A stretch of 64,000 nt of DNA from Yuukianura sp. NJ FZ-2021. Lineage: Eukaryota. The translations under genes and the position numbers were made by a program. The stretch is from the NCBI GenBank assembly GCA_046563655.1, contig CM102286.1:4402001-4466000 (forward strand), in the 5' to 3' direction. The notes beneath the pieces were generated by a model. The model did not search any database, was not told the DNA's origin, and saw only the letters and a list, made by a program, of their open reading frames with translations. This document shows, in pieces, positions 1,275 through 62,939 of this stretch (positions are counted from its first letter, which is position 1; the number at the start of each line of letters is the position of its first letter).

Positions 1275-1787
1275 TTAATCATCACCATTGTTCAAGTACA
1301 GTAGTCTGCTTATATCTATGATATCCATATCGGAAGCCGAAGGAATGGGCATTTCCCTTAGTTCATTTACTCTTTTATCCCGGGCATCTTCAAGTGTTAG
1401 GTCCATGGACAGGGAGCGTAGGGTATTATGACTTTGATTCCTCAAATTGCCGAATCGCTGGTCGTTATCGACATCCCAGCGAATCGTATGAGAGTCCATG
1501 ATGGCACTGGACTCATTCAGCTGGCCATCGTTGATTACATGGAGAGAAGGGTAGATGAAAAATGCAAACAGAAAAAGCGCTGTACAGAAGAAAATAGGAA
1601 CAGCAGCAGCCCAGTACTTCTGAGGGGGTTGGTACGGCCATTTTTCAATGATGTCTGCAGGAATGACGATCCATAAACCATACGAAACGATAAAGGAGGC
1701 ACAAAGACTGGCAAATATGAAGCCATAGATTCCTCTAGCCGGTTGGGGAGATGGTGAATGCTCGACTTCCTTCACTTTTGTTTGCAT
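1275..1787 (-). CDS. PIGP: Phosphatidylinositol N-acetylglucosaminyltransferase subunit P (intronless CDS)
   Basis: 170-aa ORF with PSPQPARGIYGF, two hydrophobic helices and PQKYWAAAVP, typical of PIG-P. Confidence 0.9.
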   Translation of the reverse strand: MQTKVKEVEHSPSPQPARGIYGFIFASLCASFIVSYGLWIVIPADIIEKWPYQPPQKYWAAAVPIFFCTALFLFAFFIYPSLHVINDGQLNESSAIMDSHTIRWDVDNDQRFGNLRNQSHNTLRSLSMDLTLEDARDKRVNELREMPIPSASDMDIIDISRLLYLNNGDD

Positions 1788-1825
1788 TATGATTGATGTT
1801 TACTCGGCCGACCTTGGTTTGGTCT

Positions 1826-3099: not shown

Positions 3100-6000
3100 C
3101 TACACTGGAACTGTGACATTGACGTTGGGTAGTTCTGGCCGGAATGCTTTGGGACGAATCATCATAATGGCTCTTTTCAAAGTATAGTCCCATCCCTGCA
3201 AATTGTTCAAAAAGGTCAAAGGTTACAGAAACAGTCACATCCATTTAAATGAAAGCGGGAAACTAAGAATTTTAAAACATTTTAAACTTTTTTATTTTGG
3301 TCTCCAAAAAACTCACTTTCCAGCGAAACCAAACGATTCCTTGCCGAGCTAACGCAGAATCTGGCTGTGATGCTTCGTAGTAAATTCCATTTAGGCCACG
3401 CCCACAGGACTTCCACCACCAACCGCCTTTAAGCATCGATGCGCAATTCAGTGACGACCGGTCATTGTCCCGGTCATGCGTCGAAAACGCCGATCCATGA
3501 GCACCATACCATGGGTCACTCAAGGCGTCTCCTGCGTCGCCGCTGTAACCACTCACTTCTAGCCGGAATCCATCGGCTTCAGACGCCACCTAAAATCGGC
3601 GGGAAATTTAGCACTACAGGTTATTGACCTCAAAATTCAGGCATAAAGCGAATCTTTTTACTTTGAACGTAGAATATTCCGCATATCTTCTTTCCCCGTC
3701 GAAATCTTCCAGCTCAATTCGAAGAACTTGGTCTTCCGAGGTTGTTAGAAGATGCAAATTGATATTTCCCATCCACATTTCCCGAACGGGGTCACCGAAT
3801 CCACTTCTATATTCGACCCAATTTCGGTGAAAACTTTCTCTTGGTTCTCCGAAGTCAGCACGTCGTTGAATTACCTAAACAAAATTGGTTTGTGCAATCT
3901 AAATATAAGCCTAGGTGCAGTTTATAAACGATGACTTCTGCTGTTTGTCAGCATTATTTTGCAATTTGATTATAGTTAATTTAATGTTTTTATAAACAAC
4001 AAACATTACCATCCATCCACCTCCGGCCGTTTCTTGGTCACAGTATGTCAGCAGTTGCCAAAATGAAGATCTCGCGCCGGGAAGGCGTAAATGGTACAAT
4101 CCAGATCGCTTTGCTCCCTGCACAAGCAGTTCTGCGCATGACGTTACAGTTTGACCAGACTGAAAAACAGTTTTAAGAATCATGATTAGTCATCGCTCTG
4201 CAAGATCTGTGAAATATTGTTTTACGCCAGTGAGGTATGCGTCTGCGCTTTCAGTTGAAGACGTTTCCACATTAGGTTTGTTCCTTATAGATGGAAAAAC
4301 GAGGTTCGGATGGCGACTGCCGTTAACTGTCGGTAAGGTATCAATTGCAAGGAATGTCACATCATGTGAACTTGGCAATTCTGGTGAAAGTTGTTCCGGT
4401 TGTTCAATGCCCTCCACAGGCGGAGCTCCTGCTTGAGAAGGTAAGTCCGGTTTTCTAAAATTTGTTTGCAAAACGTTCAATTGCTGTTCAACCGTTCCGA
4501 GTTCTGACATTATTTGGGATGCCTGTTTAAAACAAATGGAAATCTAATGCTAGCTGCATTACAGAAGTAATACTAAAATTGAGCTGAAAATTTCAATTAC
4601 TTTCAAACTTAAGTCACTTTTAATTGCAGAAATTGCTCTCTCCTGTCGCCTTGATTCTGCCAATAGAATGTCGTTCGGTGGAGGTCCGAGGAACCTTTTA
4701 TCTCCACTTCCTGTACTGTTGACATTAGGAAAAGCGGGAGTCGTTTTGGCGGTTTCATTTAAAACAATACTCCATAATCCTTCGACCCGTGACACGAGCG
4801 GAGTCAATGTCCTAAGGACACGGTCCACTCTTCTCCCGCATTGTGGAACATCATCGGTCGTTGATGATAGGGAATAGCGTGATTCCAAGTTGTCAAACGA
4901 TTTTTGAATTTGAACTTGTGTTTGACTCAGCAGATCCATTTTAGATACAAGCAAGTCCAATTTGGTAACCAGTGAATTCAGTAGAGGTCTGAAAATTAAA
5001 ATAAAAAATTACTGACATTGCGACTATTGCATCAAAACTTGTTTATATTTTTTTTCAACAAACGCGGTGTGAATTTTGAAAAAAAAATGAAAGATGGGCC
5101 ACTCATACGCCAATTCAAGAATGAGAACGAGGAATCCACTGCAATATAACGTGTCATCCTTCATTTCATCAACACCTTTCTCATCAGTGTCATCAATGTC
5201 ATTTAATTAACCTCCAAATTCAGACACAGTAAATAATTCATTTTTATGTTCTCCATTTCCATTCCTTGCCTAAACGTTTTAACACTAATAGAAACTAATA
5301 TAATTTATTTTATTTTAGGTAATCAGTTTCCATCCTTGCGGTACTGGGAGACGCTTAACACGGCTTTCGTAGTACTTTGAACTACAGCTGAACATTGCGC
5401 AACACGATGGGATTGGTTAATTGCAAGAAGAGTTTTCGCGCCTACCGCGCGTTTCCAAATTCTAACACAATGTGAATGGTTTGTTTTAAGTAAAAAAAAC
5501 TCCTCAAAAATCAAAATTTTACCGTATCCACCGTCTCAGGAGGCATTTGAAGCTAAACCTTGTGGAATGGAGATGTTCTTCTTAACACAAATAAAAAGTT
5601 GTCTACGCACTGCAACAATCGCAGTAACTTATTTCAATTTTGAATTTAATTAATTAGTGCTTAATTAAAACTCAAACTTCAAATTAAGAGTATTATTTTT
5701 TATAATTCATTTGCACTGTTTGTTAATTCACTTCAAACTGTTTCTCACACTTCCAAGCACACCTCGAAGCCTTTTCATGATTAATTTGTAAAGCTAAATA
5801 AATATAATTAAATAACAATTGCGCATGAACCCATACATTTTGTGCTCAGAAGTCTGTTAGTCAACTTTGAGCAAGGTAAGTGCAGTTAAAAATCGTGACT
5901 CAATTTAAATTAAAATTCGTAGGGCTACTATATAGTCATCATCAGACGAATTAAAATATTGTGTATAGCTTTTCCCCTACTGTATTTTTCACAACACAAT

Positions 6001-19442: not shown

Positions 19443-20223
19443 GCAGAAGGACTTTTGGAAAAAGTCAGTATGAGGCTAGCAAATTCATTAAAGTGCATTT
19501 TCCTTTTTTATGAAAATTCAGAAAATTCCGAAATATTGTGTTTCCGCAACATCATCACACATTATAACTTTGTGCAGAAGGACTTTTGGAAAAAGTCAGG
19601 ATTAGGCTAACAAATTCACTAAAGTGCATTTTCCTTTTTTATGAGAATTCAGAAAATTCAGAAATATTGTGTTTCCGCAACATCATCACACATTATAACT
19701 TTGTGCAGAAGGACTTTTGGAAAAAGTCAGTATGAGGCTAGCAAATTCATTAAAGTGCATTTTCCTTTTTTATGAAAATTCAGAAAATTCCGAAATATTG
19801 TGTTTCCGCAACATCATCACACATTATAACTTTGTGCAGAAGGACTTTTGGACAAAGTCAGGATTAGGCTAACAAATTCACTAAAGTGCATTTTCCTTTT
19901 TTATGAGAATTCAGAAAATTCAGAAATATTGTGTTTCCGCAACATCATCACACATTATAACTTTGTGCGGAAGGACTTTTGGAAAAAGTCAGGATTAGGC
20001 TAACAAATTCACTAAAGTGCATTTTCCTTTTTTATGAAAATTCAGAAAATTCAGAAGTATTGTGTTTCCGCAACATCATCACACATTATAACTCTCTGCA
20101 GAAGGACTTTTGGAAAAAGTCAGTATGAGGCTAACAAATTCATTAAAGTGCATTTTCCTTGCAGAAGGACTTTTGGAAAAAGTCAGGATTAGGCTAACAA
20201 ATTCACTAAAGTGCATTTTCCTT
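19443..20223 (+). repeat. Left arm tandem array of 131-132-bp units (about 5 full plus 2 truncated)
   Basis: Recurrent GCAGAAGGACTTTTGGAAAAAGTCAG...CATCATCACACATTATAACTTTGT, with two variants (GTATGAGGCTAGC / GGATTAGGCTAAC). Confidence 0.95.
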
Positions 20224-20300
20224 ACAAAGTTACAATGTGTTGTGAGATTCAGGGCTCACATAGCTTGAGAGACAAAGGATGATAGTGCAGAAAAAATAAG

Positions 20301-20373
20301 TGACCGAGTGGGATTCGAACCCACGTCTTTCTCCAATCCGGGGAGACTGCACTGCCCTTATGCTACCAGGCCA
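20301..20373 (-). pseudogene. tRNA-like cassette (A/B boxes, cloverleaf, T6 terminator) in the TRIM 3' LTR
   Basis: TGGCCTGG-TAGCATAAGGGCAGTGC-AG-TCTCC-CCGGATT-GGAGA-AAGAC-GTGGG-TTCGAAT-CCCAC-TCGGTCA, followed by TTTTTT (20296-20291). The acceptor stem is imperfect and the anticodon loop lacks U33. Confidence 0.8.
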
Positions 20374-20588
20374 CAACTTGCACAGGATAGAGTAGGAAGG
20401 CTACCATCAAAGGCACTGTCCAATTCCTACACCTCTATCCTTGGCGGTTGGGAGTGGGACTGTTCCCAAACGCCACATCACCCGCCCCTCAAGCTCCCTC
20501 ACGGCGCCGCCTGCCTCGGGGCACCAAATGTGAGATTCAGGGCTCACATAGCTTGAGAGACAAAGGATGATAGTGCAGAAAAAATAAG

Positions 20589-20661
20589 TGACCGAGTGGG
20601 ATTCGAACCCACGTCTTTCTCCAATCCGGGGAGACTGCACTGCCCTTATGCTACCAGGCCA
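20589..20661 (-). pseudogene. tRNA-like cassette in the TRIM 5' LTR
   Basis: Identical copy 288 bp from the first one. Confidence 0.8.
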
Positions 20662-23600
20662 CAACTTGCACAGGATAGAGTAGGAAGGCTACCATCAAAG
20701 GCACTGTCCAATTCCTACACCTCTATCCTTGGCGGTTGGGAGTGGGACTGTTCCCAAACGCCACAGTGTGATGATGTTGCGGAAACACAATATTTCTGAA
20801 TTTTCTGAATTCTCATAAAAAAGGAAAATGCACTTTAGTGAATTTGTTAGCCTAATCCTGACTTTTTCCAAAAGTCCTTCTGCACAAAGTTATAATGTGT
20901 GATGATGTTGCGGAAACACAATATTTCTGAATTTTCTGAATTCTCATAAAAAAGGAAAATGCACTTTAGTGAATTTGTTAGCCTAATCCTGACTTTTTCC
21001 AAAAGTCCTTCTGCACAAAGTTATAATGTGTGATGATGTTGCGGAAACACAATATTTCGGAATTTTCTGAATTTTCATAAAAAAGAAAATGCACTTTAGT
21101 GAATTTGTTAGCCTAATCCTGACTTTGTCCAAAAGTCCTTCTGCACAAAGTTATAATGTGTGATGATGTTGCGGAAACACAATATTTCTGAATTTTCTGA
21201 ATTCTAATAAAAAAGGAAAATGCACTTTAGTGAATTTGTTAGCCTAATTCTGACTTTTTCCAAAAGTCCTTCTGCACAAAGTTATAATGTGTGATGATGT
21301 TGCGGAAACACAATATTTCTGAATTTTCTGAATTCTCATAAAAAAGGAAAATGCACTTTAGTGAATTTGTTAGCCTAATCCTGACTTTGTCCAAAAGTCC
21401 TTCTGCACAAAGTTATAATGTGTGATGATGTTGCGGAAACACAATATTTCTGAATTTTCTGAATTCTCATAAAAAAGGAAAATGCACTTTAGTGAATTTG
21501 TTAGCCTAATTCTGACTTTTTCCAAAAGTCCTTCTGCACAAAGTTATAATGTGTGATGATGTTGCGGAAACACAATATTTCTGAATTTTCTGAATTCTCA
21601 TAAAAAAGGAAAATGCACTTTAGTGAATTTGTTAGCCTAATCCTGACTTTGTCCAAAAGTCCTTCTGCACAAAGTTATAATGTGTGATGATGTTGCGGAA
21701 ACACAATATTTCGGAATTTTCTGAATTTTCATAAAAAAGGAAAATGCACTTTAATGAATTTGCTAGCCTCATACTGACTTTTTCCAAAAGTCCTTCTGCA
21801 CAAAGTTATAATGTGTGATGATGTTGCGGAAACACAATATTTCTGAATTTTCTGAATTCTCATAAAAAAGGAAAATGCACTTTAGTGAATTTGTTAGCCT
21901 AATCCTGACTTTGTCCAAAAGTCCTTCTGCACAAAGTTATAATGTGTGATGATGTTGCGGAAACACAATATTTCGGAATTTTCTGAATTCTCATAAAAAA
22001 GGAAAATGCACTTTAGTGAATTTGTTAGCCTAATCCTGACTTTTTCCAAAAGTCCTTCCGCACAAAGTTATAATGTGTGATGATGTTGCGGAAACACAAT
22101 ATTTCGGAATTTTCTGAATTTTCATAAAAAAGGAAAATGCACTTTAATGAATTTGCTAGCCTCATACTGACTTTTTCCAAAAGTCCTTCTGCACAAAGTT
22201 ATAATGTGTGATGATGTTGCGGAAACACAATATTTCGGAATTTTCTGAATTTTCATAAAAAAGGAAAATGCACTTTAATGAATTTGCTAGCCTCATACTG
22301 ACTTTTTCCAAAAGTCCTTCTGCACAAAGTTATAATGTGTGATGATGTTGCGGAAACACAATATTTCTGAATTTTCTGAATTCTCATAAAAAAGGAAAAT
22401 GCACTTTAGTGAATTTGTTAGCCTAATCCTGACTTTTTCCAAAAGTCCTTCTGCACAAAGTTATAATGTGTGATGATGTTGCGGAAACACAATATTTCGG
22501 AATTTTCTGAATTTTCATAAAAAAGGAAAATGCACTTTAATGAATTTGCTAGCCTCATACTGACTTTTTCCAAAAGTCCTTCTGCTTGTTTGTTCAAAAT
22601 GGCTACTGGTCGTAACAATGACGACCATCATGGCACCAACGTTTGTACAAACGTTCTGGGGGCAAGGGGAGGGGTAGCGGATAGCAATTGAAGCTTCATG
22701 ACCACCCTAACTGATATTAAATGCATTTTGATTCGTTCGGTGGACCCACAGCAAGTGCCCTAGGGCACTTTTTTTTTGAAATTGTAATTTCAAAAAAGAA
22801 AACATGAGCATTATTTTGTTTCTTGCAAAAATTAGTGGAATTATGACGTTGGAATTTTAGGGAAACTCTGATGCCAAATGATAAAGAATGAATTACAACT
22901 TGTGTCATGACCCGACCCTGTCAAAATTTTGGGACACATTGCATTTCTACGAAAAAAAAATAGTTAGCACATGCGCAATACACTTACAATTACAAATTAA
23001 CGAATTAACCCTTCAGATTTTATTATACAATTGCTTTCCACCGCCACGGTATACAAAACGCTTACGGTGACAACACTCAAATCAAAAATCATCTTTTAAT
23101 CATTGTAATATATTATGTAAGGTTAAAAAATTATGTACTTGATTTAACATCGTAAAGCATCAAATGACAGAATAGTAATTATAAAATTAGGCATCTCATC
23201 TTGAGCCTCATCTGTCGACCTTTGACCTCACATCAAAATTTGATTCTCAAAGTGTCAAGGTAGGAAAGTCACACCTCTTCCCATATAACATCCGCATGTA
23301 AAATTCTCTTAAAAACAAAAATCATTTCAAATACCAAAAAAATTTCAAACAATTTTTTGCTAATGAATAATTTAGCCGCCCACCATCAACCGCGCCTTTT
23401 TATTGACACGAGCTGACTTATATGACCAAACTCGCTGCACAAAGGCTAACTCTTGAAATTTCGAAAATAACGCTCTAAAATTTACGGCGAGGTTATAATT
23501 CGGTTGTTTGAAAGCAATTTATTTGTCAAAAATAGGAAACTCAAATCCTACTTATAGCATTATTTTATGAGAATTAATTGTAACAACTTTTTAAACAAAA

Positions 23601-34425: not shown

Positions 34426-36548
34426 TATGGAGGGATTCTGGTGGCTAAATTATTTTAAATTTTCGCGCGTTAAAAAACGTTTCGCGCATTAAAAACGACA
34501 GTTTCCGCCAATTAAAACAACGCGCGAAAAGTATTTTTAATTGGCGGAACGTTTATTGCAGAAAAAGTAAATTGCAGGAAAAATCAATTGCAGTAACTCT
34601 ATTGCAGTAAAAACTCGTTTTTTACCATTTCAAAATTTGTCTTTTACCATTTAAAATTTTGCCATTTACCATTTAAAGTTTTGTCATTTACCATTTAAAA
34701 GCTTGTTTTTTACCATTTAAAAATTTTGTCATTTACCGTTTAAACTTGTTTTTTGCCATTTAAAAATTTTGTCATTTACCATTTAAAACTTTGTTTTTTA
34801 CCATTTAAAAGCTTGTTTTTTACCATTTAAAAGTTTGCTTTTTACCATTTCAAATTTTGTTATTTACCGTTTAAAATTTTGTCTTTTGCCATTTCAGTTT
34901 TGTATTTTGCCATTTCAAACTTTGTCTTTTACCGTTTCAAAGTTTGTCATTTAAAAGTTTGTTTTTCGCCAATTGATTGCACTAAAAGTCCCACATGGCC
35001 CAGCTCCCCGTGCAAAGATGGGCAAATAAATTATTCCTAATCTTAATTATTTCGTTAAGCTAACTACGTCATAAATATGAAAATAATCTACTAAAATTAA
35101 TGTATATTTTTTGTATTAATTATATTAATATTTAAGGCGCCTAATGGTTATTAAATACAATGCTGTTGGTTGTAGCATTTGTTCATTTGGACATTGACAA
35201 AGTGACAAGTCACAAGCCGGTTGACGTAAGGTATACCATGCACAATTGTACATTGTAGCCAGTGTTGGTGGATGCTTAAACGTTCAGTGGCTTAATTGCC
35301 ACTTCCACTGGATATCCACTGGAAGAAATGCTCCCGAAATGGATGAAACTTTTAGTGGATGGAAGAAATTAAGAATTTAGCGCGAAATTCAAAAGAAATT
35401 CAAATTTAAAATTGCAAAAAAATGTGAAAAAGAGTTTTTTTTTCATCGTTAAAATTAATTATTTATTTAAAACTGATACAAAAACGATATTTCCTTCGTT
35501 TTTGTACGGTATTTTGAATTACTCAATCTTGTTGTATTTAATTAATTAAAATCCCGCGGGCAATGCTCCGCCCCTTTGGATTCATCCATTCATCCTAATC
35601 TTCATTTCTTCCATCCACTAAAAGTTTCATCCATTTCGGGAGCATTTGTTCCAGTGGATATCCAGTGGAAGTGGCAATTAAGCCACTGAACGTTTAAGCA
35701 TCCACCAACACTGGCTACAATGTACAATTGTGCATGGTATACCTTACGTCAACCGGCTTGTGACTTGTCACTTTGTCAATGTCCAAATGAACAAATGCTA
35801 CAACCAACAGCATTGTATTTAATAACCATTAGGCGCCTTAAATATTAATATAATTAATACAAAAAATATACATTAATTTTAGTAGATTATTTTCATATTT
35901 ATGACGTAGTTAGCTTAACGAAATAATTAAGATTAGGAATAATTTATTTGCCCATCTTTGCACGGGAGCTGGGCCATGTGGGACTTTTAGTGCAATCAAT
36001 TGGCGAAAAACAAACTTTTAAATGACAAACTTTGAAACGGTAAAAGACAAAGTTTGAAATGGCAAAATACAAAACTGAAATGGCAAAAGACAAAATTTTA
36101 AACGGTAAATAACAAAATTTGAAATGGTAAAAAGCAAACTTTTAAATGGTAAAAAACAAGCTTTTAAATGGTAAAAAACAAAGTTTTAAATGGTAAATGA
36201 CAAAATTTTTAAATGGCAAAAAACAAGTTTAAACGGTAAATGACAAAATTTTTAAATGGTAAAAAACAAGCTTTTAAATGGTAAATGACAAAACTTTAAA
36301 TGGTAAATGGCAAAATTTTAAATGGTAAAAGACAAATTTTGAAATGGTAAAAAAACGAGTTTTTACTGCAATAGAGTTACTGCAATTGATTTTTTCCTGC
36401 AATTTACTTTTTCTGCAATAAACGTTCCGCCAATTAAAAATACTTTTCGCGCGTTGTTTTAATTGGCGGAAACTGTCGTTTTTAATGCGCGAAACGTTTT
36501 TTAACGCGCGAAAATTTAAAATAATTTAGCCACCAGAATCCCTCCATA
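34426..36548. mobile_element. About 2.1-kb palindromic (foldback-like) element: arms of about 945 bp and a spacer of about 235 bp
   Basis: 34426-35369 is the near-perfect reverse complement of 35604-36548 (termini TATGGAGGGATTCTGG / CCAGAATCCCTCCATA). Flanked by direct repeat CTTTGC (34420-34425, 36549-36554). Confidence 0.85.
34615..34965 (+). repeat. About 21-22-bp minisatellite (TTTTACCATTTAAAAnTTTGTn) in the left arm of the palindromic element; mirrored at about 36005-36360
   Basis: Many degenerate copies of TTTACCATTTAAAA...TTTGT visible directly. Confidence 0.85.
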
Positions 36549-50548: not shown

Positions 50549-52927
50549 TTAAGGCAAGGGAATTCCATTTTTCTGGCAATACTCAACCTTCAGTACTCTT
50601 CGTAACAACTTTCCGGACGGAGCTTTAGGAATTGCGCTTACAAATTCAACGCCTCCCGTCAATTCCTTGTGTCGACTTATTCTTCCTTGAAGAAATTTGT
50701 GAACATCGTCAGCCGTAAGTTTGGGATCATTGGAGACGATGTAGGCTCTTGGAAGTTCTCCAGCCTCAGGGTGAGGAATGCCAATCACTGCTGCTTCAAC
50801 AATATTCGGATGTTGACGCAGGAGATCTTCTAACTCTGCAGGCGCGACCTAAAAAATATCCAGGTCAAGAGTTTCAAAATACAAAAAATATAGATAACAG
50901 AACCTAACAAAAAATAGAAATACAAAAAAAAGCAGAGCAGTGGACGCTTTGCGTATGCGCAAGGAATTTGCAGGAACTTACTTGGTTCCCTCTAACTTTA
51001 ATTAGCTCCTTGACACGGTCAACGATGTAGAAGTATTCATCTTTGTCGTAGTAAGCAATGTCACCAGTATGCAACCACCCATCGGAGTCTACCGTTTCCT
51101 TCGTAGCCGCGTCGTTATTCCAGTATCCTTTCATGACCTTGAAAAATTTCGAAATTGTTTTTTTTTTTTTTTGAAAATATTGCCAAACCTAATTCAATCA
51201 ACATCGAAAGCTAACCTGAGGTCCTTTGATACAAATTTCTCCTCGTTCATTAGGTCCAAGTGTTTTTCCAGTACCATCCGTTGCCACAAGCTTCCCAAAA
51301 GTACTTGGTATTAACGTGCCACAGGATCCTACTCTTGTATTTTTTGTACTCTGAGGTAGTATCATGCATCCAGGACTGAGTTCAGTCATTCCATAAACCT
51401 CCTGGAAGAAAAAGTATTTCCCAGCTTTTTCCAGTAGTTTCTCGATAAGCCATGGGCCAATTGGAGCTGCGCCACCCACTACAGTATGAACGCTTTCTAA
51501 TTCCTTCGAACCATACTCGGGGCTGGAATTAATTAAGGCGATCAGAGGCGTTACGACGTGGAGAATCGTAGGCTGAAAACAGAAAAAGAAAAGAAAAATA
51601 ACCGTATCGCCTAATTCAAATCAAAATTCTATTCTAATGCCTTCTCTTGTAATTTGTACGTAATCCACTGTTAGTGACTTTGTTTCACCTTATGAGTTCG
51701 TACGGCATTGAGGAAGGTTACTGGATCAAACTTAGGCAGGCAAAGCGTAGTGCCAGCAACAATTGGTCCAATAAAAACAAACGTTGTGAGGCCATAGGAA
51801 TGAAAGAACGGTAACACTAAAACCAAAAATTAAACTCATTCATCAGTATTACCAAATACATTTATATTTTTTTAATTAAAGACGACCTACATCCTATAAA
51901 ACGCTCGTCTCTTCCAGAAAATGCGCTTACAGTTATCCCACAGTTTCCTAATGTAAGTTGAACCATTTGAGTAACCAGATTGCTGTGTGTCAAAGCCACG
52001 CCCTTCGGCTTTCCTATAAAGTAAAAGTCAATTTACTAATTTAACTCTATCCGTCAAATTGGAAATCAAGACATGCAGAATGAACCTGTCGTTCCGCTAG
52101 AATAGGGAAGAATGGCAACTTCGCCTGTCGTGTCAATGTCCGCTCCTCGTAAAACTTTTGCCTTGGATCCATCCACTTTGATCATTTCAGTGTACGTGTG
52201 ACATCCCTCCATGGCTTCGCCAAGGACAATCAAATGCGTCAAGCTTGGATTCGTTTTCTGAAAATTCCTTAGGAATGGAATGAATGGCGGAATTGTTACG
52301 ACGCATTTGCACTGTGCATCAGCGACTTGTCGCAGCATTTCCTCTAAAAATTGTCAAAACACAATTATCCATAACTTCAAAGTATTAAAAACTTCCTTGA
52401 AATAACTTTTTTTTTTGAAAATCTTGAAAATACCTGGAGTATACGCTGGATTGACAGTGCTAGGAATTAGGCCAGCTTCCATAACGCCATACAAGATGGA
52501 GGCAAAATGAATGTTATTGGGAAGCACAATTCCCACGGTATCTCTTCTCTGGAGTCCTGCTTCTTGAAGCGCTGCAGCGAAATTCCGGGCATTCCGGAAT
52601 ACTTCTCCATGACTAATTTTTGCTCCAGTTATACCATCTTCCTGAAATTTTAAAAAAAAAATCAAATTCAACAACATAACTGGAAAACTAAAAGTAAAGT
52701 TTGGAATAACTTACGAACGCGATACTTTGTTTGCTATTCGCGAACTTATTGTAGGATCTAACGTATTCTGGAAGTGTTATTCCAACGACTGTTCCAACAT
52801 CCGGATACTTTGACTTCAGTATAATTTCGTCATTTGAAATTGTTCCATTTCCAGTTGTAACAATTCCACGATTTGACGTTTGAACAACAGGCCATGTCCG
52901 GAGACAGATTCTTCGACACAGTAACAT
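50549..52927 (-). CDS. Luciferase-like / 4-coumarate-CoA ligase-like acyl-CoA synthetase (AMP-binding superfamily)
   Basis: [44 protein letters not shown] and [11 protein letters not shown] motifs. Arg-rich N-terminus; the C-terminus (GIPLP) has no PTS1. Confidence 0.92.
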
Positions 52928-53620: not shown

Positions 53621-56600
53621 TTAGTAGCTACGACCAAACAGAGTGTAAGCCAATGGCTTCGAGGTGCACTTGGGGTGAATGCACTTCGTTGCATCTCCGA
53701 TTTCCTTGGGTTGTTTGAAAGGAGTGCATAAACTTTTCGCTCCCATGGCTGGTGCTCCGCTGTCACCGGCTTCTTCCTTGGCACTTTCCTTCTTGATTAA
53801 TTCCTCACATGGAATTGCACCACAGAAAGGAGAGAGAATTATATTCCTCTTGTCCAAATCTCCGCAAAATGTCTTCCAATCTTCGGCAACTGAGATATGG
53901 CTGTCCATTTCAGCCTTAGCTCTGCGTACAAAAAAGACAATTTTTTTTATATAGTTGTAGTTCTTCCAAAGCTTGACTTCTCAAATATTGTACTTACTTT
54001 TGAAACATGCTGTTATGGATTTCCTTGAGGAGATTTGGAATGTCAACCTTCGCAGTTGCGCATTTCAACGTGGCTTTGACTCCATTGTCACGTCTTACTG
54101 CCACGTATTGATTCTCCTTCAGATCTCTTGGACCGATTTCAATTCGAATTGGTACACCCTAAAACAATAGTATTTCAAAAAATTTTAGGTTGTCAATACG
54201 AAATTCTATTCGCATGTTCAGGCACAACGATTTTTCAAATATACCTTCAACTCCCAATCATTAAATTTCCATCCGGGAGAGTAGTTATCTCGAAAGTCCG
54301 CTTCAGCTCTCACTCCAGCCGCCACGAGATCCTGTTCGTGTGTCTTGCAGGCAGTCATAAGTGCATTTCTGTCCTCATCAGTTGTGTTTACGGTAATACC
54401 GCACGGGATGATTACCACTTGAATCATTGCTACACGTGGTGGAATTACTAAACCTTGATCATCCGAGTGTACCATCACCATTGCACCTAAAAAAATAAGA
54501 TGATAACGTGACCCGTTGACTACTCAAGAGGAGGCAAAGTGCGAACTTCGGACTCCGAAGTTACACTATTTGGGGAGAAAGTCCAATAAACAAAAACTCA
54601 GAATCAGCATATATAACAACAGATTTACCGATTGTCCTTGTTGAGAGTCCCCAGGAATTTTGGTACGCAAACTGTTTTTGCTTAGTTTCAGGATCGTCAA
54701 ATGTAATTTCAAACATCTTTGAAAAGTTTTGACCAAGATGGTGAGAAGTAGCGCCCTATGAATTTATTAAAAAACTTCAAATAAATTATTTAATACACCA
54801 GCATTCAAAACATTAATCAACCATTAGCCCTTCGGTTGAGCTTACCTGAAGACCACGGCCAGAGGCAGAGATGTATGCTTCGACAGTCGTCGTGAAGTCG
54901 CCTCCAGGAAACTTTTCCTTTTCTGTTTTCCTTCCCGGAACTACAGGAATTGCCAACAAATCGGTGTAGACTTTCTCATACAAGTCCAGAATTTGGTACA
55001 CTTCTTTGTCCGCTTCTTCGTACGTTGCAAATGCTGTATGACCTTCCTGCCATAAGAATTCTCGCGTCCTCAAAAACGGCTGCGGGTGTTTGAACTCCCA
55101 TCGCACTACGTTGTTCCATTGGTTGAGTTTGATTGGGAGATCCCTGTATGATTGTACCCATTTGGCGTAGGCAGGGTACATAGCAGTTTCAGATGTCGGA
55201 CGAATTGCAACAGGTTCAGCCAGCTCACTATCCCCACTCTTCGTAACCCAAGCAACTTCGGGAGCAAAATCAGCGATGTGGTTCTTCTCCCTCTCCAGCG
55301 CAGCATGACTTACAAATATCGGAAAATAGGCGTTCTTTACTCCAAGCTTTTTGATTTCAGCATCGAACCAATCACGAATAGCTTCCCAAATGGAGTAAGC
55401 CCATGGACGCAAGATGTAACAACCACTGACGTCGTAGTACTCGATCATTTCACCTTTCGTAATAACCTGAAATCCAATGTAACAAATTACATTAACTTTA
55501 TGAATAAACTTTATTTTGTTATTTTGTAATTAATTTGGGTCTTGTTAATGTTGAATTCATTACCTGAGAATACCATTCTGGTAAGTTTTCTGCCTTCTTT
55601 GCCTCCAAACCCAAACGGGTTTGCTTCTTTCCGCCGGATTTCGCTGCTTGCGGCTCTTGTGCTTTTCCTTTGTTGTCCGGTTTCTTAGCGTCTCCAGCAT
55701 CAGGCTTCTGCTTCTTTGGATTCTGCTTGGGACCGTCTTGTTTCGGAGTGTTTTGCTTCTTCGCTTCAGATTCCGCTCCCTTTTCCTTCTTAGGGTTCGA
55801 CTTCGCAGCATCCGGAGATTTTCCTTGCACTTTGCCCTTTGGCTAGGAATGTCAAAAACCAAATTCCAAAATTCTACATCTCTTCATTGAGACTATAATC
55901 GAGATAGTGAAGCAAGTATTACCTCAGCTGCTGGTTTCGGTGGTTCAGTCGTTAGTTTCTTGACGCGACCATCGGTGATTTCGTGAAGAATAAGCGGTTG
56001 TACTTCTCCCGATCTAAAAAAAAAAGAGTAATCATCGTCGTTAGCATATGAATGTCCCAGCACTTTGAAGTATTTCAACAAATGTTTTGTCAGCTTACTC
56101 ATTAGCACTGTAAGGTGCATCACAAATATAGAATTCTTTGCGTTGCAGCTGAATAATGTCGCCTTTCTTTACATGTTTTAAATCCTCATCTCCGAACATC
56201 TCAACCGCAATCTAAAAGAAAGAAAAGTTACACATGATGAATTTGTTAACTCCATTCAATTCAAATGCGAGGCATTGTGTTCCGTACCTTTGTATTTTGT
56301 GCAATGTACTGCTTGAAGTCTTCCTCCTTCCCCAACACAGCCTTGGAAATAATGTTGTCAAAAGTGTAAGCGGTTATGGGAACAAAAGTTGTACCCTTTG
56401 CTTCGCCTAGCCAAGTAATCTTCAGCGTTTTCTTGTAATCCGTGTTTTCCAAGTTAGTTTCAGCGTCAACACTCTCAATGTCTCCTTTCTCATTTCGATG
56501 CAATTTTACGATCTTGATGTTTCCCCAGTTTACAAAAGTGACGTTCTCGCCTTCTTTGAACAAATCAGCATCTGCCTTCTCAACCCAAACCTTAGGAGAT

Positions 56601-59543
56601 CTCCAGACGTTGCGAGTTCCAACGTCAGGATTCTTTGGATGAGCTGGTACTTGTTGGCATTCCTCTTTGGCGTTTGCAATATTGACAAGAATTCGGCCTT
56701 CCTTGACCAGAGCAGTATGTCGAGGGGCAATGGGGTCAATGACCTGCAAAAGCATTGATTCCATGATCTGTGTGTTGAATACGGCAGAAGATGATCTTCT
56801 TACCTTTCTGTTGAAAGCCCAAATCTTGTCCCACTCCATCATGTTCACAGACTTTGAAGATCCTTGAGCTATAATGAATTGCTTGAGTCCTTCCACAGTC
56901 ATGCCACGTCGAATAATTCCGCGAACTGTAGGAAACCTCGGATCGTCCCTGCACAACATAAAATGATGATATTAACTAAAGATCCAGCTATAAACCAATT
57001 TGTAATCCCATTTATCTAATCAAACCCAGCATTGCTTACCATCCGTCAACCAGTTTCTGATCTACGAACCAAGTGAGCTTTCGTTTTGAGAGGACGGTGT
57101 GAGTCAGGTTTAGCCGAGAATATGAGTAAATGTATGGCTTGCGAAGACCCAAAGCCTCAATAATCCAGTAATATTGGGCATCTCGATCATGGTATTCCGT
57201 TGTTCTGAGAGCATGCGTAACACCTTCGATGCTATCCACAATTGGACAGGCAAAATCGTACGTCGGGTAGACACTAAAAAGACAAGTTATTGAAATCAGT
57301 CATGATCTTGCCGTTGTAATGTAATTACATAACAAAGAGAAAATTATAGAGGAAAACTGGCGGTACCGCCTCATTATCAAAGCAATTTACTATATAACAA
57401 CCTAATTAAGTTACAACTTAACAACTTACATGTACTTGTTGCCCGTGCGCGGGTGAGCTTCTGCTTTGCATCGATAAATGGTTGGATCTCGTAAACATCC
57501 GTTGGCCGAATTCATGTCAATTTTCGCTCTTACACAACAGGTCTGTCCAACCTGAGATCCTCTCTTCATTTCCTCCCAGAGTTCCAAATTCTTTGCAACG
57601 TCTTTTAAAAGTAAAAACGATGTTACAACCGAATGATTTTAAGCAACCATAATCATATCATACCATTGTTGCGGTTCTTTGATTCCACTCGCTTCTCGCG
57701 CTCAATCTTCATTGTCTCTGGGTCCGTGTCATCAACGTAAGCTGTTCCATTCCTCAACATTCTTTCACAAAATCCAAGCAGAGCCTCAAAATGATCCGAT
57801 GTATATGTAAATTCATCGGGTGTAATTCCGAGTGTCTTGACATCTTCAAGAATGGCCTAAAATTCAAAATGGACCTCCATTATTAAATACCTTAAAGTCT
57901 CATCTCAGTGGGGCAAGAATCGTATTCAGCTATAGTACTTACGTCTTCAAATTCCACATTTTCTTTTGCTGGATTCGTGTCATCGAATCTAAAGATTAGC
58001 TTCCCTTCAAACATCTGTTGGTAATGTTGATTCAGCAAAGCCGCCTTGGCGTGACCAATATGAAGAAAACTGAAACCATAAGAAAAATTGTTCCAGGCTT
58101 CCAGACAAATACTTCATTTTTATTATTATTATAATTATTAGTAAGTGAAGAGATTAGCATACCCTGACGCCTCCGGAGGAAATCTGACGACAACTTTCCC
58201 TTTCTCAGCCCCCGGTAATTCAACATATTTTCCCTCATCTTTGAAGTTCTTCTTATCGTTGTCTTCTCCTTTACGTTGATTCTTTTTGGAATTGTCCATG
58301 TTGCCCTTACGGTTCGTTGAATGGTCTCCTTCGCCAGAACCCTTCTGTAAAAATAGGACAAGGGTCAAATGTCAATCGAGAAAATCAGTGCCACTGCCAA
58401 GCCAAGAATCAAAGCACTCCCTGAACAGCAGGAAAAGGGAGAAATGATAACTCTCGTGAAGTAAGCCGTGTGCATTGTGTCATCATTCATCGGCATCTCC
58501 ATTCATTTGAACGGATCAACAAGGAGTTACGCACGCATGGGAGACAGATTACGGTCTATGTTGGGCATCACCAACAACGTGCAAAAATTGAAATGTGCAA
58601 AACGATTCGACTAAGATTAATGGATTTAAGCACAGGTTACAGGCACTGAGGCAATTCAATGGTATCCGCGAAATAACACGAAGAAAATTGCTGAAATTAG
58701 TTATCTCACAAACAAGCATTACGAAAATAGAGGAGTTAGATGTCAAATGATAATGATTGTCAAGATATATGGTTTTTACCGATTTACCTTAACTGCGTGA
58801 TTCTTGTCGTCCTCGCCTGTCAAGTCGATGAACTGGATTTTCTTGTCGATGCCAGTAGTATCTACGTAGTTGTTGATCTTTTCCCGAATCAATTTCATCC
58901 ATCTATTGATGTTTGCAAAGTCTGTCTCCACTTAAAGAAAATGTTTGCATTTTAATTCCGACTGCTACCTCCTGCGGCAGAATCAATATTTGCCTTACCT
59001 TTAACGGGAATTAGCTTGTCATAGATTGCTAAGTCCGCGATAGTTAACACTTCGCCGGCCATGAAAGAGCGATTTTTAAGTGAACTTTCCAGATACTCCA
59101 GTTGCTTTTGCCCCGGGATAACAAGATGCTGCTCCGCATATGTCAACCAGTGATCAATCTAAAACAGTGGCGAGCATTACTTTGTTATGAACTTACTACA
59201 AAACTGTACTAAAAAATCAACATACCTGGGTCTTCTGGATCGCAGTTCCCGAGTATAGCCCTTTTGAGGTCTTCAGCGAAAGAATTCGTAGGATTGACGA
59301 ATGCTGCTTAGTGGAGTACTTGTTATTTTCCCAGCACGCTTTTGTTTCGTTTCCCCAAATCAATTTCACCGATGGATCGTTAGCAGTGTTCAACAGGTAA
59401 GCGATTCCTACTTAGAAAAGAACTCAAATCAATTCAAAAAATGAAATCGTATTATGGTATAAAGTTTTCAGTGATCTTCACCGTTTACCGGTACCTTTTG
59501 GAACATTTTCCTTCGCCAAAGTCACCTCCAGATTCATTTGCAT
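53621..59543 (-). CDS. EPRS1: Bifunctional glutamyl-prolyl-tRNA synthetase (GST-like, GluRS, linker, ProRS)
   Basis: GST-like N-terminus (LTIADLAIY), [31 protein letters not shown], then ProRS motifs [23 protein letters not shown] and C-terminal LFGRSY. Confidence 0.96.
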
Positions 59544-60504: not shown

Positions 60505-62939
60505 ATGCATGGAGTTAGGCACAGTTTACCAGCGGATACGGTTACGGCTACTTACTACGGCGCTGGAGATTCGGACGGAACATTAAGTGGTGTCCCATTT
60601 TCTACAGATGGACGTTCGGGGTTTTCAAAGGCCAGTTTCCTCACTGATACGTTTATGTCTTCCCATTGAATTGATGATAATTAACTGTTCTGCAGGGAGA
60701 AGAAGTGCCTTTGATAAAAGGAGAAGAAATATGGAGAATGACACCGGATGTAACATACCTCAGCCCCTACGCTGCTCCATTGAAGGGAAACTTATACTTA
60801 ACAACCTACAAGCTATATTTTGAAAGCACGTCTAACAAAGATAAGGAAAGCAAAGTGTTTCAAGTTCCGCTTGGAGTGGTAAACTTTCTTTTACTTTGCC
60901 TTATTTAAAACTTATAGAAATCCGGTTGTATAAAAATTTGTCTAATTTAGATCAACAGGGTCGAGAAAGTTGGGGGAGTATCTAGCCGTGGTGACAATTC
61001 TTATGGACTGGAAATTTTTTGCAAAGATGTCAGAACGTTGAAATTCGCACAGAATAGGGAGAACCATTCCAGACGAGAATTATTTGAAGATTTACTGCAT
61101 CTGTGTTTTCCTTACACAAGAAAAGGCCTTCCATTTGCATTCTCATTCCAGGAACAGTTCCATGTGGATGGATGGACAATATATGATCCCGTCGCGGAGT
61201 TGAAACGAATTGTAAGTTACACAGTTTGTTATTTTTGCTAATATTGTGGTAAGTATCCAGTGAAACAGTGTACATGCTTTTCTACAGGGAGTTCCAAATG
61301 AATCCTGGAAAATTATCAAGATAAATGAAAAGTACGAAGTTTGTGACTCATATCCAGCGATCTGGGCAGTTCCAGCAGTTGCTGATGATGAGTTCATTCA
61401 TGACGTTGCCTCCTTTCGCTCGAGAAACCGCCTTCCTGTTCTTTCATGGCTTCATCCCCACAGTCAAGCCAGTATTACGAGATGTGCCCAACCGAATGTT
61501 GGATTAGCATCAAAACGAAATAAGAATGATGAGATTTATCTTCAAATGATTCTTGACGCAAACGTACAAGGTCACAAATTGATCGTGATGGATGCTCGTC
61601 CCAAGTAAGAAAATTTCTCGCTCTAACCGAACAATCTAAGATTATTGCTCAGATTACCTAATTAATCTATCATTGACAATGTTTTAGTGCAAATGCTTTG
61701 GCGAATAAAGCGAAGGGCGGTGGATACGAATCGGAAGATGTATATCAAAACATCGAGTTGATATTTCTGGACATTCACAACATTCATGTAATGCGAGAAT
61801 CTCTACGAAAAGTGAAAGGTAAAGTACATTAACAACAATTAAATCAACTGAGTTCAGTACTTCCATCACTAATTTACTATTCCCGTTACCATAAACAGAG
61901 GAATGCTATCCAACTACAGACGAGAATAGATGGCTGTCGGCAATCGATAGCTCACGATGGCTGGATCACTTGAAGTGTGTCATAGCTGGTGCTGCTCGGA
62001 TCGTCGACAGAGTCGAGAACGGTAAAACTTCTGTTTTAGTCCATTGTTCAGACGGCTGGGACAGAACTTCCCAGGTAACATTTCCATCAAATAGAACAGT
62101 TTTTACTTCAATTGTGAAATTCTTCGTCAAAATTTTGGATTTTTGTGTTCCCAAGTTGACTTCACTCTCCATGTTACTTCTGGATGGGTACTACAGAACG
62201 TTACGCGGTTTTCAAGTCTTGGTTGAAAAAGAGTGGCTAAGCTTTGGTCATAAATTTCAGCAGGCAAGGAAGATTAATAATATTGCTGGATCTTAATTTC
62301 ATTAGCTTCAACTTCTGTTTTAACTTTTATAGCGCGTTGGACATGGAGACGAGAGACACGCAGACGCAGATCGGTCTCCGATATTTCTTCAATGGGTGGA
62401 CTGTGTTTATCAAGTAACCAAGCAGTACCCTAATGCTTTTGAGTTCACTGAAAACTTTCTCATCACCATACTGGATCATCTCTACTCTTGCCTCTTTGGT
62501 ACGTTTTTGTACAACACTGAACGAGAACGAGTGGCGAATGAACTCAAAAAGAAAACAGTTTCATTATGGTCTCTCGTCAATTCTAATCCCGATTTCTACA
62601 CAAATCCTTTCTACTGCGATGAGGTTTCCCGTAACAAGGTCATCATCCCATCTCCAGCAATTCGTCACTTGAAATTCTGGAAAACCTACTTCTGCAGATG
62701 GAATAGACTTGTTCATAAACAGGTAATTGACATGATTGTGCAAAGAACATCAAGAAACCAAGAATTAACATTTACATGTATTGCTATTGTTAAACTAGGA
62801 TCCAGTGATGTGTTCGAACAAATATCAACATCTGATGCTTTATAAAGCACAACTGGAAACTAGGCTAGCAGACCTGAAGTTGTTGGAAGATGCGGAAAAT
62901 AGAAATCACCGCACTGCCGTGAGAGCCGCGTATTTTTAG
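60505..62939 (+). CDS. MTMR2: Myotubularin-related phosphoinositide 3-phosphatase (MTM1/MTMR2-like)
   Basis: PH-GRAM region, catalytic [32 protein letters not shown] and a C-terminal coiled coil. The start at 60505 is inferred. Confidence 0.9.

Follow-up and report, generated by a model that had tools for sequence, protein, structure and literature searches.

A probable Helenus-type TRIM, with a tRNA-like unit in each of two identical LTRs, inserted in a 131-bp satellite

TRIMs that carry a tRNA-derived unit in their LTRs have been described as Helenus, or TRIMp3, elements (Kojima, 2024; PMC10886601); the first-pass annotation of the locus considered here had mentioned tRNA-bearing TRIMs under this name, and the class is indeed a published one. 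In that source, animal Helenus LTRs range from 104 to 323 bp and internal regions from 43 to 621 bp, full lengths over all families are 311–1263 bp (PMC10886601, Table S1), and the target site duplication (TSD) measures 4 bp in all animal families for which its length is given. The animal elements are thought to be mobilized by Gypsy elements, and the primers listed for them are of the Lys, Leu, Trp, Arg, His, Ile, Pro, Glu and Ser types. The tRNA-like part is decayed in most Helenus, and transcription by RNA polymerase III (Pol III) is stated there to be unproven; Cassandra is the one TRIMp3 lineage with experimental evidence. The only arthropods from which Helenus is reported are wasps.

In the 64,000 nucleotides analysed here (the window), positions 20241–20765 of the minus strand hold what is very probably a full-length, recently inserted Helenus-type TRIM (TRIMp3), a non-autonomous LTR retrotransposon. 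Its 525 bp divide into 237 + 51 + 237: in the element's sense, a 5′ LTR (20529..20765), an internal region (20478–20528) and a 3′ LTR (20241..20477), all on the window's minus strand. The LTRs start 288 bp apart, have TG and CA termini whichever strand is read, and are equal by string comparison at 237/237 positions; because there are no differences over these 237 positions, the element appears to have been active recently. On the sense strand, the internal region begins with TT followed by TGGTGCCCCGAGGCAGG, a sequence resembling a primer-binding site (PBS; 20510..20526), the TGG of which begins 2 nt past the 5′ LTR, and it ends with a polypurine tract (PPT)-like sequence (20478..20500, sense GAGGGAGCTTGAGGGGCGGGTGA), with purines at 18 of the final 23 nt and 11 of the final 13; a PPT ahead of the 3′ LTR is a feature of Helenus. 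The sizes of LTR, internal region, full element and TSD (237, 51, 525 and 4 bp) all fall inside the published Helenus ranges. The complete, young TRIM that had been proposed at first pass, with identical 237-bp TG...CA LTRs around a 51-bp core of PBS and PPT, is borne out by repeat, string and base-composition analysis, the PBS being a putative one. Two ORFs run across it (20269–20553 on the plus strand, 20410–20688 on the minus strand), neither of which matched a Pfam family, and to judge from its sequence the element is without coding capacity. None of the 82 window ORFs of at least 85 aa encodes a reverse transcriptase, integrase or gag domain, and BLAST found no second copy in the window, the best other matches being of 12–17 nt (E at least 1.2).

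The element is bounded on both sides by GTGT (20237..20240 and 20766..20769), and neighbouring units of the 131-bp satellite in which it lies have a single GTGT in the same context. The corresponding empty site, AATGTGTGATGATG, occurs 18 times in the window (13 on the plus strand and 5 on the minus), every time within satellite units, and in two DNA runs there are uninterrupted satellite contigs (7 in X1, 4 in X3) that read straight into 20766 from ...AAAGTTATAAT. Removal of the element together with one GTGT restores a satellite unit, and the earlier claim of a 4-bp GTGT TSD confirmed by the empty site stands. The array that received the insertion, in what we call orientation B, occupies 20766..22585 (13.9 units, 96% matches). 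To the left of the element is a 17-nt satellite fragment in the same orientation (20224..20240; ACAAAGTTACAATGTGT, compared with ACAAAGTTATAATGTGT in the unit, 16/17), and then satellite in the opposite orientation A (19443..20223), terminating in two truncated 63-bp units (20097–20223). This switch of orientation at 20223/20224, 17 bp from the element, does not figure in the first-pass annotation; the insertion site has been rearranged, or it is possibly misassembled. There is also a near-perfect palindrome of 2.1 kb elsewhere in the window. With its identical LTRs and a known empty site, an insertion in a satellite such as this one is useful for dating both the turnover of the satellite and the change of orientation close by.

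Each LTR includes a tRNA-like unit, placed by Rfam at 20301..20372 in the 3′ LTR and 20589..20660 in the 5′ LTR, and by ARAGORN, which labels both as Ser (GGA), at 20299–20374 and 20587–20662. The matches of both programs are to the minus strand, in agreement with the initial assignment of the unit to the element's sense strand; the presence of a unit in each LTR was likewise correct, but its length is 72 nt (Rfam) or 76 nt (ARAGORN) rather than the 73 nt first given. A search with Infernal had been proposed at that stage, and cmscan of 20100–20900 (4227 families, E ≤ 1) found tRNA (RF00005) twice, over model positions 1–71 of 71, with 31.4 bits (E 1.7e-4) against a gathering score of 29; tRNA alone was returned from this interval, with no 5S rRNA-derived segment such as marks Cassandra and Ajax. 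Both of the internal promoter boxes by which Helenus is recognized are present: box B is intact (GGTTCGAATCC on the sense strand, including GGTTC), and the box A-like sequence TAGCATAAGGG, of the form TAGCA..GGG, is slightly off the common Helenus pattern TRGCY..YGG. In the Rfam alignment, the anticodon loop is CCGGAUU (C33, U37), with GGA as a Ser anticodon; only 5 nt make up the variable region, and the acceptor stem has one mismatch, flagged by cmscan as a non-standard pair. The minimum-energy fold has three hairpins and is cloverleaf-like, with a stability no greater than that of shuffled sequence (z 0.15). As read from these features, the unit is decayed and not a working tRNA. Four nucleotides past it comes a T6 run that resembles a Pol III terminator (20291..20296 in the 3′ LTR, where it is A6 on the plus strand; 20579..20584 in the 5′ LTR), occupying sense positions 182–187 of the LTR (TTTT starts at 182–184). 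Three fungal Helenus LTR consensus sequences of PMC10886601 have a T4 run shortly past the tRNA-like part, near the LTR end.

Related copies exist in two organisms. Their DNA runs contain variant LTR contigs (G>A at 20566, for example, appears in 16 X1 contigs and 7 X3 contigs), in which the first 50 nt of the LTR sense strand (20716–20765) are invariant in both organisms. One X1 contig matches 20685–20765 and then continues into 36 letters that are not satellite, which gives this end of the LTR a second flank. The order LTR–internal region–LTR, with the joint going back 288, is found in contigs from RNA libraries (X5 and X7), which also cross the T6 run; these contigs are unstranded, of low depth (2.4 and 8.8), and come from environmental metatranscriptomes in which DNA carry-over is possible. 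Other runs, too, have contigs with the same order, among them a diverged version from the second organism. Contig depth was not taken as copy number in any of these comparisons, and stretches of the element that had little or no cover in a single run did not enter into the evidence. Exact-pattern scans of metagenome contigs gave no match to a 24-mer from the conserved LTR end, nor to a 25-mer covering T arm, acceptor and trailer.

How might such an element be propagated? In the outline that follows, we infer which polymerase makes the template, that a terminator is read through, which tRNA acts as primer and that the partner is a Gypsy element. An RNA would begin in the 5′ LTR and finish in the 3′ LTR, most likely made by Pol III from the internal A and B boxes that the tRNA-like unit provides, a template step that we consider somewhat better than an even prospect. 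The R region would then be about 80 nt long, from the start of the unit as far as T6 (LTR positions 106–187), and termination at the first T6 would have to be leaky, because Pol III, on meeting a T6 right after the unit, should stop about 50 nt short of the LTR end, with the PBS lying beyond. A host tRNA would pair with the PBS 2 nt past the 5′ LTR to prime minus-strand cDNA, the purine tract would prime the plus strand, and reverse transcriptase and integrase supplied in trans would insert the TG..CA-ended DNA, with duplication of 4 bp (GTGT). To judge by animal Helenus, for all of which this is the published view, the autonomous partner would be a member of the Gypsy superfamily, as had been suggested at first pass.

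There is a different account, to which we attach a minor but real probability: this would be an ordinary TRIM transcribed by Pol II, and the tRNA-like unit would ride along as a passenger, the fossil of a SINE or tRNA once inserted in an ancestral LTR, at most yielding its own RNA of about 85 nt that ends at T6 and plays no part in transposition. With T6 only 4 nt past the unit and about 50 nt short of the LTR end, a normal Pol III transcript would be without the PBS, and the RNA-library contigs cross T6 as a Pol II transcript would. In addition, the block of T arm, acceptor and trailer occurs in other contexts in X3 and X5 (with loose ends at 20579, 20612 and 20638), as would be expected of a module that other tRNA-derived repeats also possess. 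On the other hand, neither a TATA-like nor a poly(A)-signal hexamer could be found on either strand of the LTR (AATAAA, ATTAAA, TATAAA and TATAA were sought), and among the variants listed from both organisms none falls in 20572–20613 (T arm, acceptor, trailer and T6), although the flanking LTR is variable. For the unit as a whole, the X1 and X3 variants listed give 3 variable places in its 72 nt and 13 in the 165 nt outside, numbers too small for a claim of selective conservation. A further point against a passenger is that the RNA of Cassandra is reported, in PMC10886601, to start and end in the 5S part of the LTR.

That the structure is not an LTR element at all, but a 288-bp segment, containing a tRNA-derived SINE or a tRNA pseudogene, that was duplicated locally in tandem, or else an artefact of assembly where the satellite is rearranged, is already disfavoured, and seems to us very improbable. 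Tandem Repeats Finder (TRF) does report a repeat of period 288 (1.8 copies), the adjoining satellite is rearranged, as its truncated 63-bp units and the switch at 20223/20224 attest, and there is the 2.1-kb palindrome elsewhere in the window. Such an origin would nevertheless leave unexplained repeat boundaries that coincide exactly with TG..CA, the presence, precisely at the two inner junctions, of a tRNA-complementary site beginning with TGG and of a purine tract, the restoration of a satellite unit on removal of the element and one GTGT, and the recurrence of the LTR–core–LTR order in the contigs of other runs, including the diverged version from the second organism. Least credible of all is a pair of functional tRNA-Ser(GGA) genes, as ARAGORN's label would have it for both units and as the T6 past each, like that of real tRNA genes, and an Rfam score just above gathering might suggest: a genuine tRNA would be expected to score well above 31.4 bits, the copies are identical only as parts of LTRs, and C33, U37, the acceptor-stem mismatch and a 5-nt variable region are at odds with a functional tRNA-Ser, a tRNA that has a long variable arm and, for UCN codons in eukaryotes, normally comes with A34/I34, C34 or U34, not G34. 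The two 'tRNA-Ser' genes, with no others called in 64 kb, illustrate how Helenus-type elements inflate tRNA gene predictions. A tRNA-derived SINE (SINE2) was also considered, and is ruled out by the direct 237-bp TG..CA repeats with PBS and PPT between them.

Returning to the Helenus-type TRIM, the primer for this copy looks like elongator tRNA-Met: by hand count, the PBS agrees with the first 17 nt of an oligonucleotide complementary to the human tRNA, which may differ from that of the host, at the first 10 nt and at 14/17 in total (10.1101/2020.12.02.402354). Related copies in the second organism have a different PBS, of tRNA-Phe type, and in the DNA run of the first organism little of the contig depth, summed over LTR/core junctions, belongs to the PBS type seen in the window. 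Self-priming by the tRNA-like RNA of the LTR was tried as a candidate and rejected, since by hand comparison the PBS has only TGGTG and CCGAG, with an indel between, in common with the sequence complementary to the CCA-extended 3′ end of that RNA; complementarity for such self-priming was likewise not found for Helenus in PMC10886601. We suggest, very tentatively, that there may be an active springtail lineage of Helenus with one conserved LTR (with the unit and T6 serving as R) and interchangeable PBS modules, Met-like here and Phe in the second organism. If that were true, these TRIMs would swap their primer tRNA, and perhaps their autonomous partner, across short evolutionary distances, and the lineage would be a tractable system for learning how a parasite of a parasite changes its host element, and whether read-through of a Pol III terminator makes the template. 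The difference in PBS between close copies and the placing of a terminator ahead of the PBS provide handles on the template polymerase and on changes of partner dependence, both of which are unanswered in PMC10886601.

Among the window's genes, an exon for ProRS, with 80–89% identity to animals of many phyla, is too conserved to place the host, PIG-P has 8 relatives in a protein search (best 67%), whose names are uninformative, and the best named identity of a GluRS exon is 62%, to Orchesella cincta. The animal host of the element is probably a springtail, and if this placement holds, the range of Helenus/TRIMp3 would be extended beyond wasps, the sole arthropods listed so far. When motifs of the element were compared with the consensus FASTA and tables of PMC10886601, seven of the eight were absent, the sole match being a generic T arm in a fungal family, and it is plausible on these sequence comparisons that the element represents an undescribed Helenus family. 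Three points look new: the lack of shared motifs with the published consensus sequences (the generic T arm apart), a host that groups with a springtail, and the copies with a tRNA-Phe-type PBS in a second organism.

Finally, we compare the element with the systems that it most resembles, as these are described in the sources cited. Like ULTR-1_NVi and the other Helenus families of chalcidoid and cynipid wasps (PMC10886601), it has an A/B-box unit in each LTR, a core with a putative PBS and a PPT, a 4-bp TSD, no ORF and no credible tRNA, but the wasp families have internal parts of 197–621 bp, in contrast to 51 bp here, and are hosted by Hymenoptera rather than by a springtail-grouping animal. 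The PBS types of our element (like elongator tRNA-Met, and tRNA-Phe in the variant) are outside the primers listed for animal Helenus. In its proportions, it is closer to LTR-11_DR/Helenus-1 of cypriniform fish (PMC10886601), with a core of 43–48 bp, LTRs near 200 bp, a 4-bp TSD and very recent activity; these differ in having a vertebrate host, a tRNA part aligned with tRNA-Val and a PBS of His, Leu or Lys type, and LTR-11_DR is reported to form tandem arrays, in contrast to the lone copy with two LTRs seen here. Cassandra shares the plan of a small-RNA gene with Pol III promoter and terminator in each LTR, but its segment is 5S-derived and it is confined to plants (PMC10886601, PMC10853983), whereas cmscan recognized only tRNA here. 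Like the element, the tRNA-derived SINEs (SINE2) are short, non-autonomous and headed by a tRNA-like sequence that contains A and B boxes; they have neither LTRs nor a PBS and PPT, and their 3′ tail is LINE-related, A-rich or a simple repeat, whereas the element described here has LTRs and a fixed 4-bp TSD.

At 20241–20765, with the window's minus strand as its sense strand, lies a 525-bp unit that is very probably a new, intact and young TRIM (a miniature non-coding LTR retrotransposon) of the Helenus type, in a host that is probably a springtail. By repeat search and string comparison its two LTRs (20241–20477 and 20529–20765) are identical at 237/237 positions and spaced 288 bp from start to start, each beginning with TG and ending with CA (TGTGGCG...CTCACA in the sense reading), and between them is a core of 51 nt (20478–20528). 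Read in the sense direction, a putative primer-binding site (PBS), TGGTGCCCCGAGGCAGG, which has TGG at its start and resembles the complement of a tRNA 3' end, stands directly after the TT beyond the first LTR, and the core closes before the second LTR in a likely polypurine tract (PPT; purines at 18 of 23 positions) terminating in GAGGGAGCTTGAGGGGCGGGTGA. Because these two sites follow in this order on the minus strand, the element and the tRNA-like unit within each LTR share that strand as sense; the first-pass annotation was right about the paired LTRs, the short core and the common orientation. Checking of its ORFs for domains revealed no coding capacity.

The flanks read ...AATGTGT on one side of the element and GTGTGATGATG on the other. 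The surrounding satellite, a 131-bp tandem repeat, contains 18 copies of the 14-mer AATGTGTGATGATG, in which GTGT stands once (13 on the plus strand and five on the minus strand), and contigs of unbroken satellite reach 20766 in public DNA runs of two coded organisms (n=7 in X1 and n=4 in X3, with loose ends before 20766). These 18 single-GTGT 14-mers and the contigs running into 20766 therefore establish the 4-bp duplication and its empty site, which had been proposed from the sequence alone. With no difference over 237 LTR positions, the element must either have inserted very recently or have had its LTRs homogenized by gene conversion. Arthropod mutation rates are roughly a few × 10^-9 per site per generation, at which a single LTR difference would be expected only after something like several hundred thousand generations.

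The array itself is built of inverted arms, with one orientation at 19443–20223 (closing in two truncated 63-bp units, 20097–20223) and the reverse at 20224–22585. The element lies only 17 bp from this switch (20223/20224) in a 3.1-kb array, a closeness that random insertion would give about 1% of the time (34/3140), and which may reflect a preference for distorted DNA, later rearrangement or misassembly. Elsewhere in the window there is a near-perfect 2.1-kb palindrome (34426–36548, with 224 nt between the innermost arms), whose arms pair at 34426–34583/36391–36548 and 34618–35008/35964–36354 (both 100% complementary) and at 35007–35374/35599–35966 (99%), and contain tandem repeats of 22 and 110 bp. 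The palindrome is a foldback-type transposon or else an artefact of long-read assembly.

ARAGORN found only two tRNA genes in the whole 64-kb window, both inside the LTRs on the minus strand and both labelled Ser(GGA). Rfam cmscan of 20100–20900 (E<=1) gave two matches, one in each LTR and both to tRNA (RF00005), at 31.4 bits against a gathering score of 29, with E 1.7e-4 and the full model covered. The unit occupies LTR positions 106–177 in sense orientation. In the Rfam alignment the T arm and box B are perfect (GGTTCGAATCC), the D-arm region is TAGCATAAGGG, the anticodon loop is CCGGAUU (giving C33 and U37), and the anticodon is GGA (Ser), yet the variable region has just 5 nt; cmscan scored one acceptor-stem pair as non-standard. 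The minimum-energy fold has three hairpins with the acceptor stem partly paired, and its stability does not exceed that of shuffled sequence (z 0.15). Nearly all tRNAs have U33 and a purine at position 37, tRNA-Ser carries a long variable arm, and G34 is normally not used by eukaryotes to read the UCN box. By its C33, U37, 5-nt variable region and GGA anticodon, the unit is therefore a decayed tRNA derivative with its promoter boxes retained, and not a functional tRNA-Ser(GGA) gene. A T6 run follows at LTR positions 182–187, four nt past the unit.

Contigs of four public runs were compared with 20460–20896 (X1, which may be the source sample, X3, and two environmental RNA libraries, X5 and X7, whose contigs are unstranded and may be DNA). 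LTR-matching contigs with many variants were present in the DNA runs of both organisms; 20566 G>A, for example, was carried by 16 contigs of X1 and seven of X3. The sense first 50 nt of the LTR (20716–20765) showed no change in the variant contigs of either organism (records 3 and 11). One 94-nt X1 contig is identical to 20465–20558 (LTR end, core and LTR start), and another matches 20685–20765 and continues into 36 non-satellite letters, a different flanking sequence joined to this LTR end. Contigs of X5 and X7 pass from LTR through core to LTR (at the joint they go back 288) and cross the T6 run. The 64-kb window contains no second copy, and scans of metagenome contigs for short exact patterns from the LTR gave no matches. 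In all four runs depth was highest over the T-arm/acceptor/trailer block (20576–20638, with its counterpart in the second LTR), contig depths not being copy numbers. In X3 and X5 contigs this block leads into other tRNA-like sequence, not LTR (loose ends 20579, 20612 and 20638), one X3 continuation again having a ..GGA.. anticodon-loop remnant; this block is probably a module shared with related tRNA-derived repeats of the same genomes, either SINEs or further Helenus families.

The PBS varies among these copies. By hand count, that of the window agrees with the complement of human elongator tRNA-Met (human, not the host's own) at 14/17 positions, the first 10 contiguous, as counted over the initial 17 nt of the oligonucleotide printed in 10.1101/2020.12.02.402354. 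Organism B (X3) and an X7 RNA contig have a core version differing by 12 letters and two gaps over 97 nt, and five of these substitutions (20512, 20514, 20517, 20518 and 20519) fall inside the PBS. With these five changes applied by hand, the 17-mer agrees at 16/17 with the complement of Drosophila (again not host) tRNA-Phe(GAA), as printed in 10.1101/699934, whereas the window PBS reaches only 11/17; a human tRNA-Phe oligonucleotide (10.1101/2020.04.28.067314) repeats these 17 letters behind three additional A's at the 5' end. The summed depth of the X1 contigs is about 9,700 at the PPT-side junction and drops to 780 across the window-type PBS, and most of the depth at 20495 has another letter, which suggests further core and PBS variants in that organism as well.

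The window consists of animal DNA. It encodes a fibrinogen-C-domain protein (3275–4189), an AMP-binding enzyme (acyl-CoA synthetase or luciferase-like; 50552–52710) and a bifunctional Glu/Pro-tRNA synthetase (53624–59411), all on the minus strand, and a myotubularin-like phosphatase (60951–62842, plus strand), which are ordinary animal genes near the satellite, together with a single-exon PIG-P homologue (1278–1799, minus strand; Pfam E 1.9e-19). The last has just eight relatives at E<=0.001 in a collection of 5.8 billion proteins (best 67% identity), none informatively named and one labelled 'hypothetical protein', the lineage being thinly represented in named databases. In a quick IQ-TREE analysis of the synthetase (25 rows: the window's tblastn pieces joined with X, and 24 hand-picked from 243 proteins), the window was placed with a metagenome protein (78% identity), and the pair joined the springtail Orchesella cincta with support of 99 and 100 (SH-aLRT only). 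This argues with moderate strength, since the tree held only one springtail, for a springtail or near relative as host.

How might such an element be copied? Its integrase-type TG..CA ends and 4-bp duplication are LTR-element anatomy; the 82 window ORFs of at least 85 aa contained no RT, integrase or gag domain, and by analogy with Helenus, reverse transcription and integration may be supposed, with a Gypsy partner. Each LTR has promoter-type boxes and a terminator-type T run, and by analogy with Cassandra, as summarized in PMC10886601, the template RNA would begin in the 5' LTR, at its tRNA-like unit, and stop in the 3' LTR, at its T run. R would then be LTR positions 106–187, which leaves about 105 nt for U3 and about 50 nt for U5. 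The first T6 would have to be read through, much as retroviruses must ignore the poly(A) signal of their 5' LTR. In the three fungal LTR consensus sequences of Helenus that were inspected, a T4 run likewise stands a little past the tRNA-like part, near the LTR end, and so this layout seems general. That the template is instead made by Pol II, with the small-RNA gene a passenger in the LTR, we consider unlikely; AATAAA, ATTAAA, TATAAA and TATAA occur on neither LTR strand. Pol III transcription of Helenus is without experimental proof, as PMC10886601 states.

Helenus was defined by Kojima (2024; PMC10886601) as TRIMs with tRNA-derived LTR sequence, mostly judged non-functional, and with a PBS and PPT between the LTRs; with Cassandra and Ajax it makes up TRIMp3. 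Literature searches on TRIMp3 gave no other relevant paper, and those on Helenus retrotransposons gave, beyond it, only papers citing it; the class is therefore already known, as the first-pass annotation had suspected, and the element has its defining structure. Seven of eight element motifs were absent from the supplementary text of that paper (99,764 characters of consensus FASTA and tables, in which motifs broken across lines could escape), and the eighth, a 15-mer of generic T arm, occurred once, in a fungal family; thus the family is likely to be undescribed, as judged against that text. Arthropod Helenus are listed from chalcidoid and cynipid wasps only, with internal parts of 197–621 bp (Table 1, Table S1, PMC10886601), and the element's main value, of modest importance, lies in a probably wider host range and in the questions of PBS swapping and termination. 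Animal Helenus families show PBS similarity to Gypsy elements only, and their published primer list lacks both Met and Phe, which the element and the variant PBS resemble (PMC10886601). Duplications are of 5 bp in fungi and the single plant family and of 4 bp in every animal family where determined, animal LTRs are of 104–323 bp with internal parts of 43–621 bp (Table S1), and full lengths are 311–1263 bp (Discussion, PMC10886601); at 237, 51, 525 and 4 bp for LTR, internal part, full length and duplication, the present element lies within every one of these published ranges.
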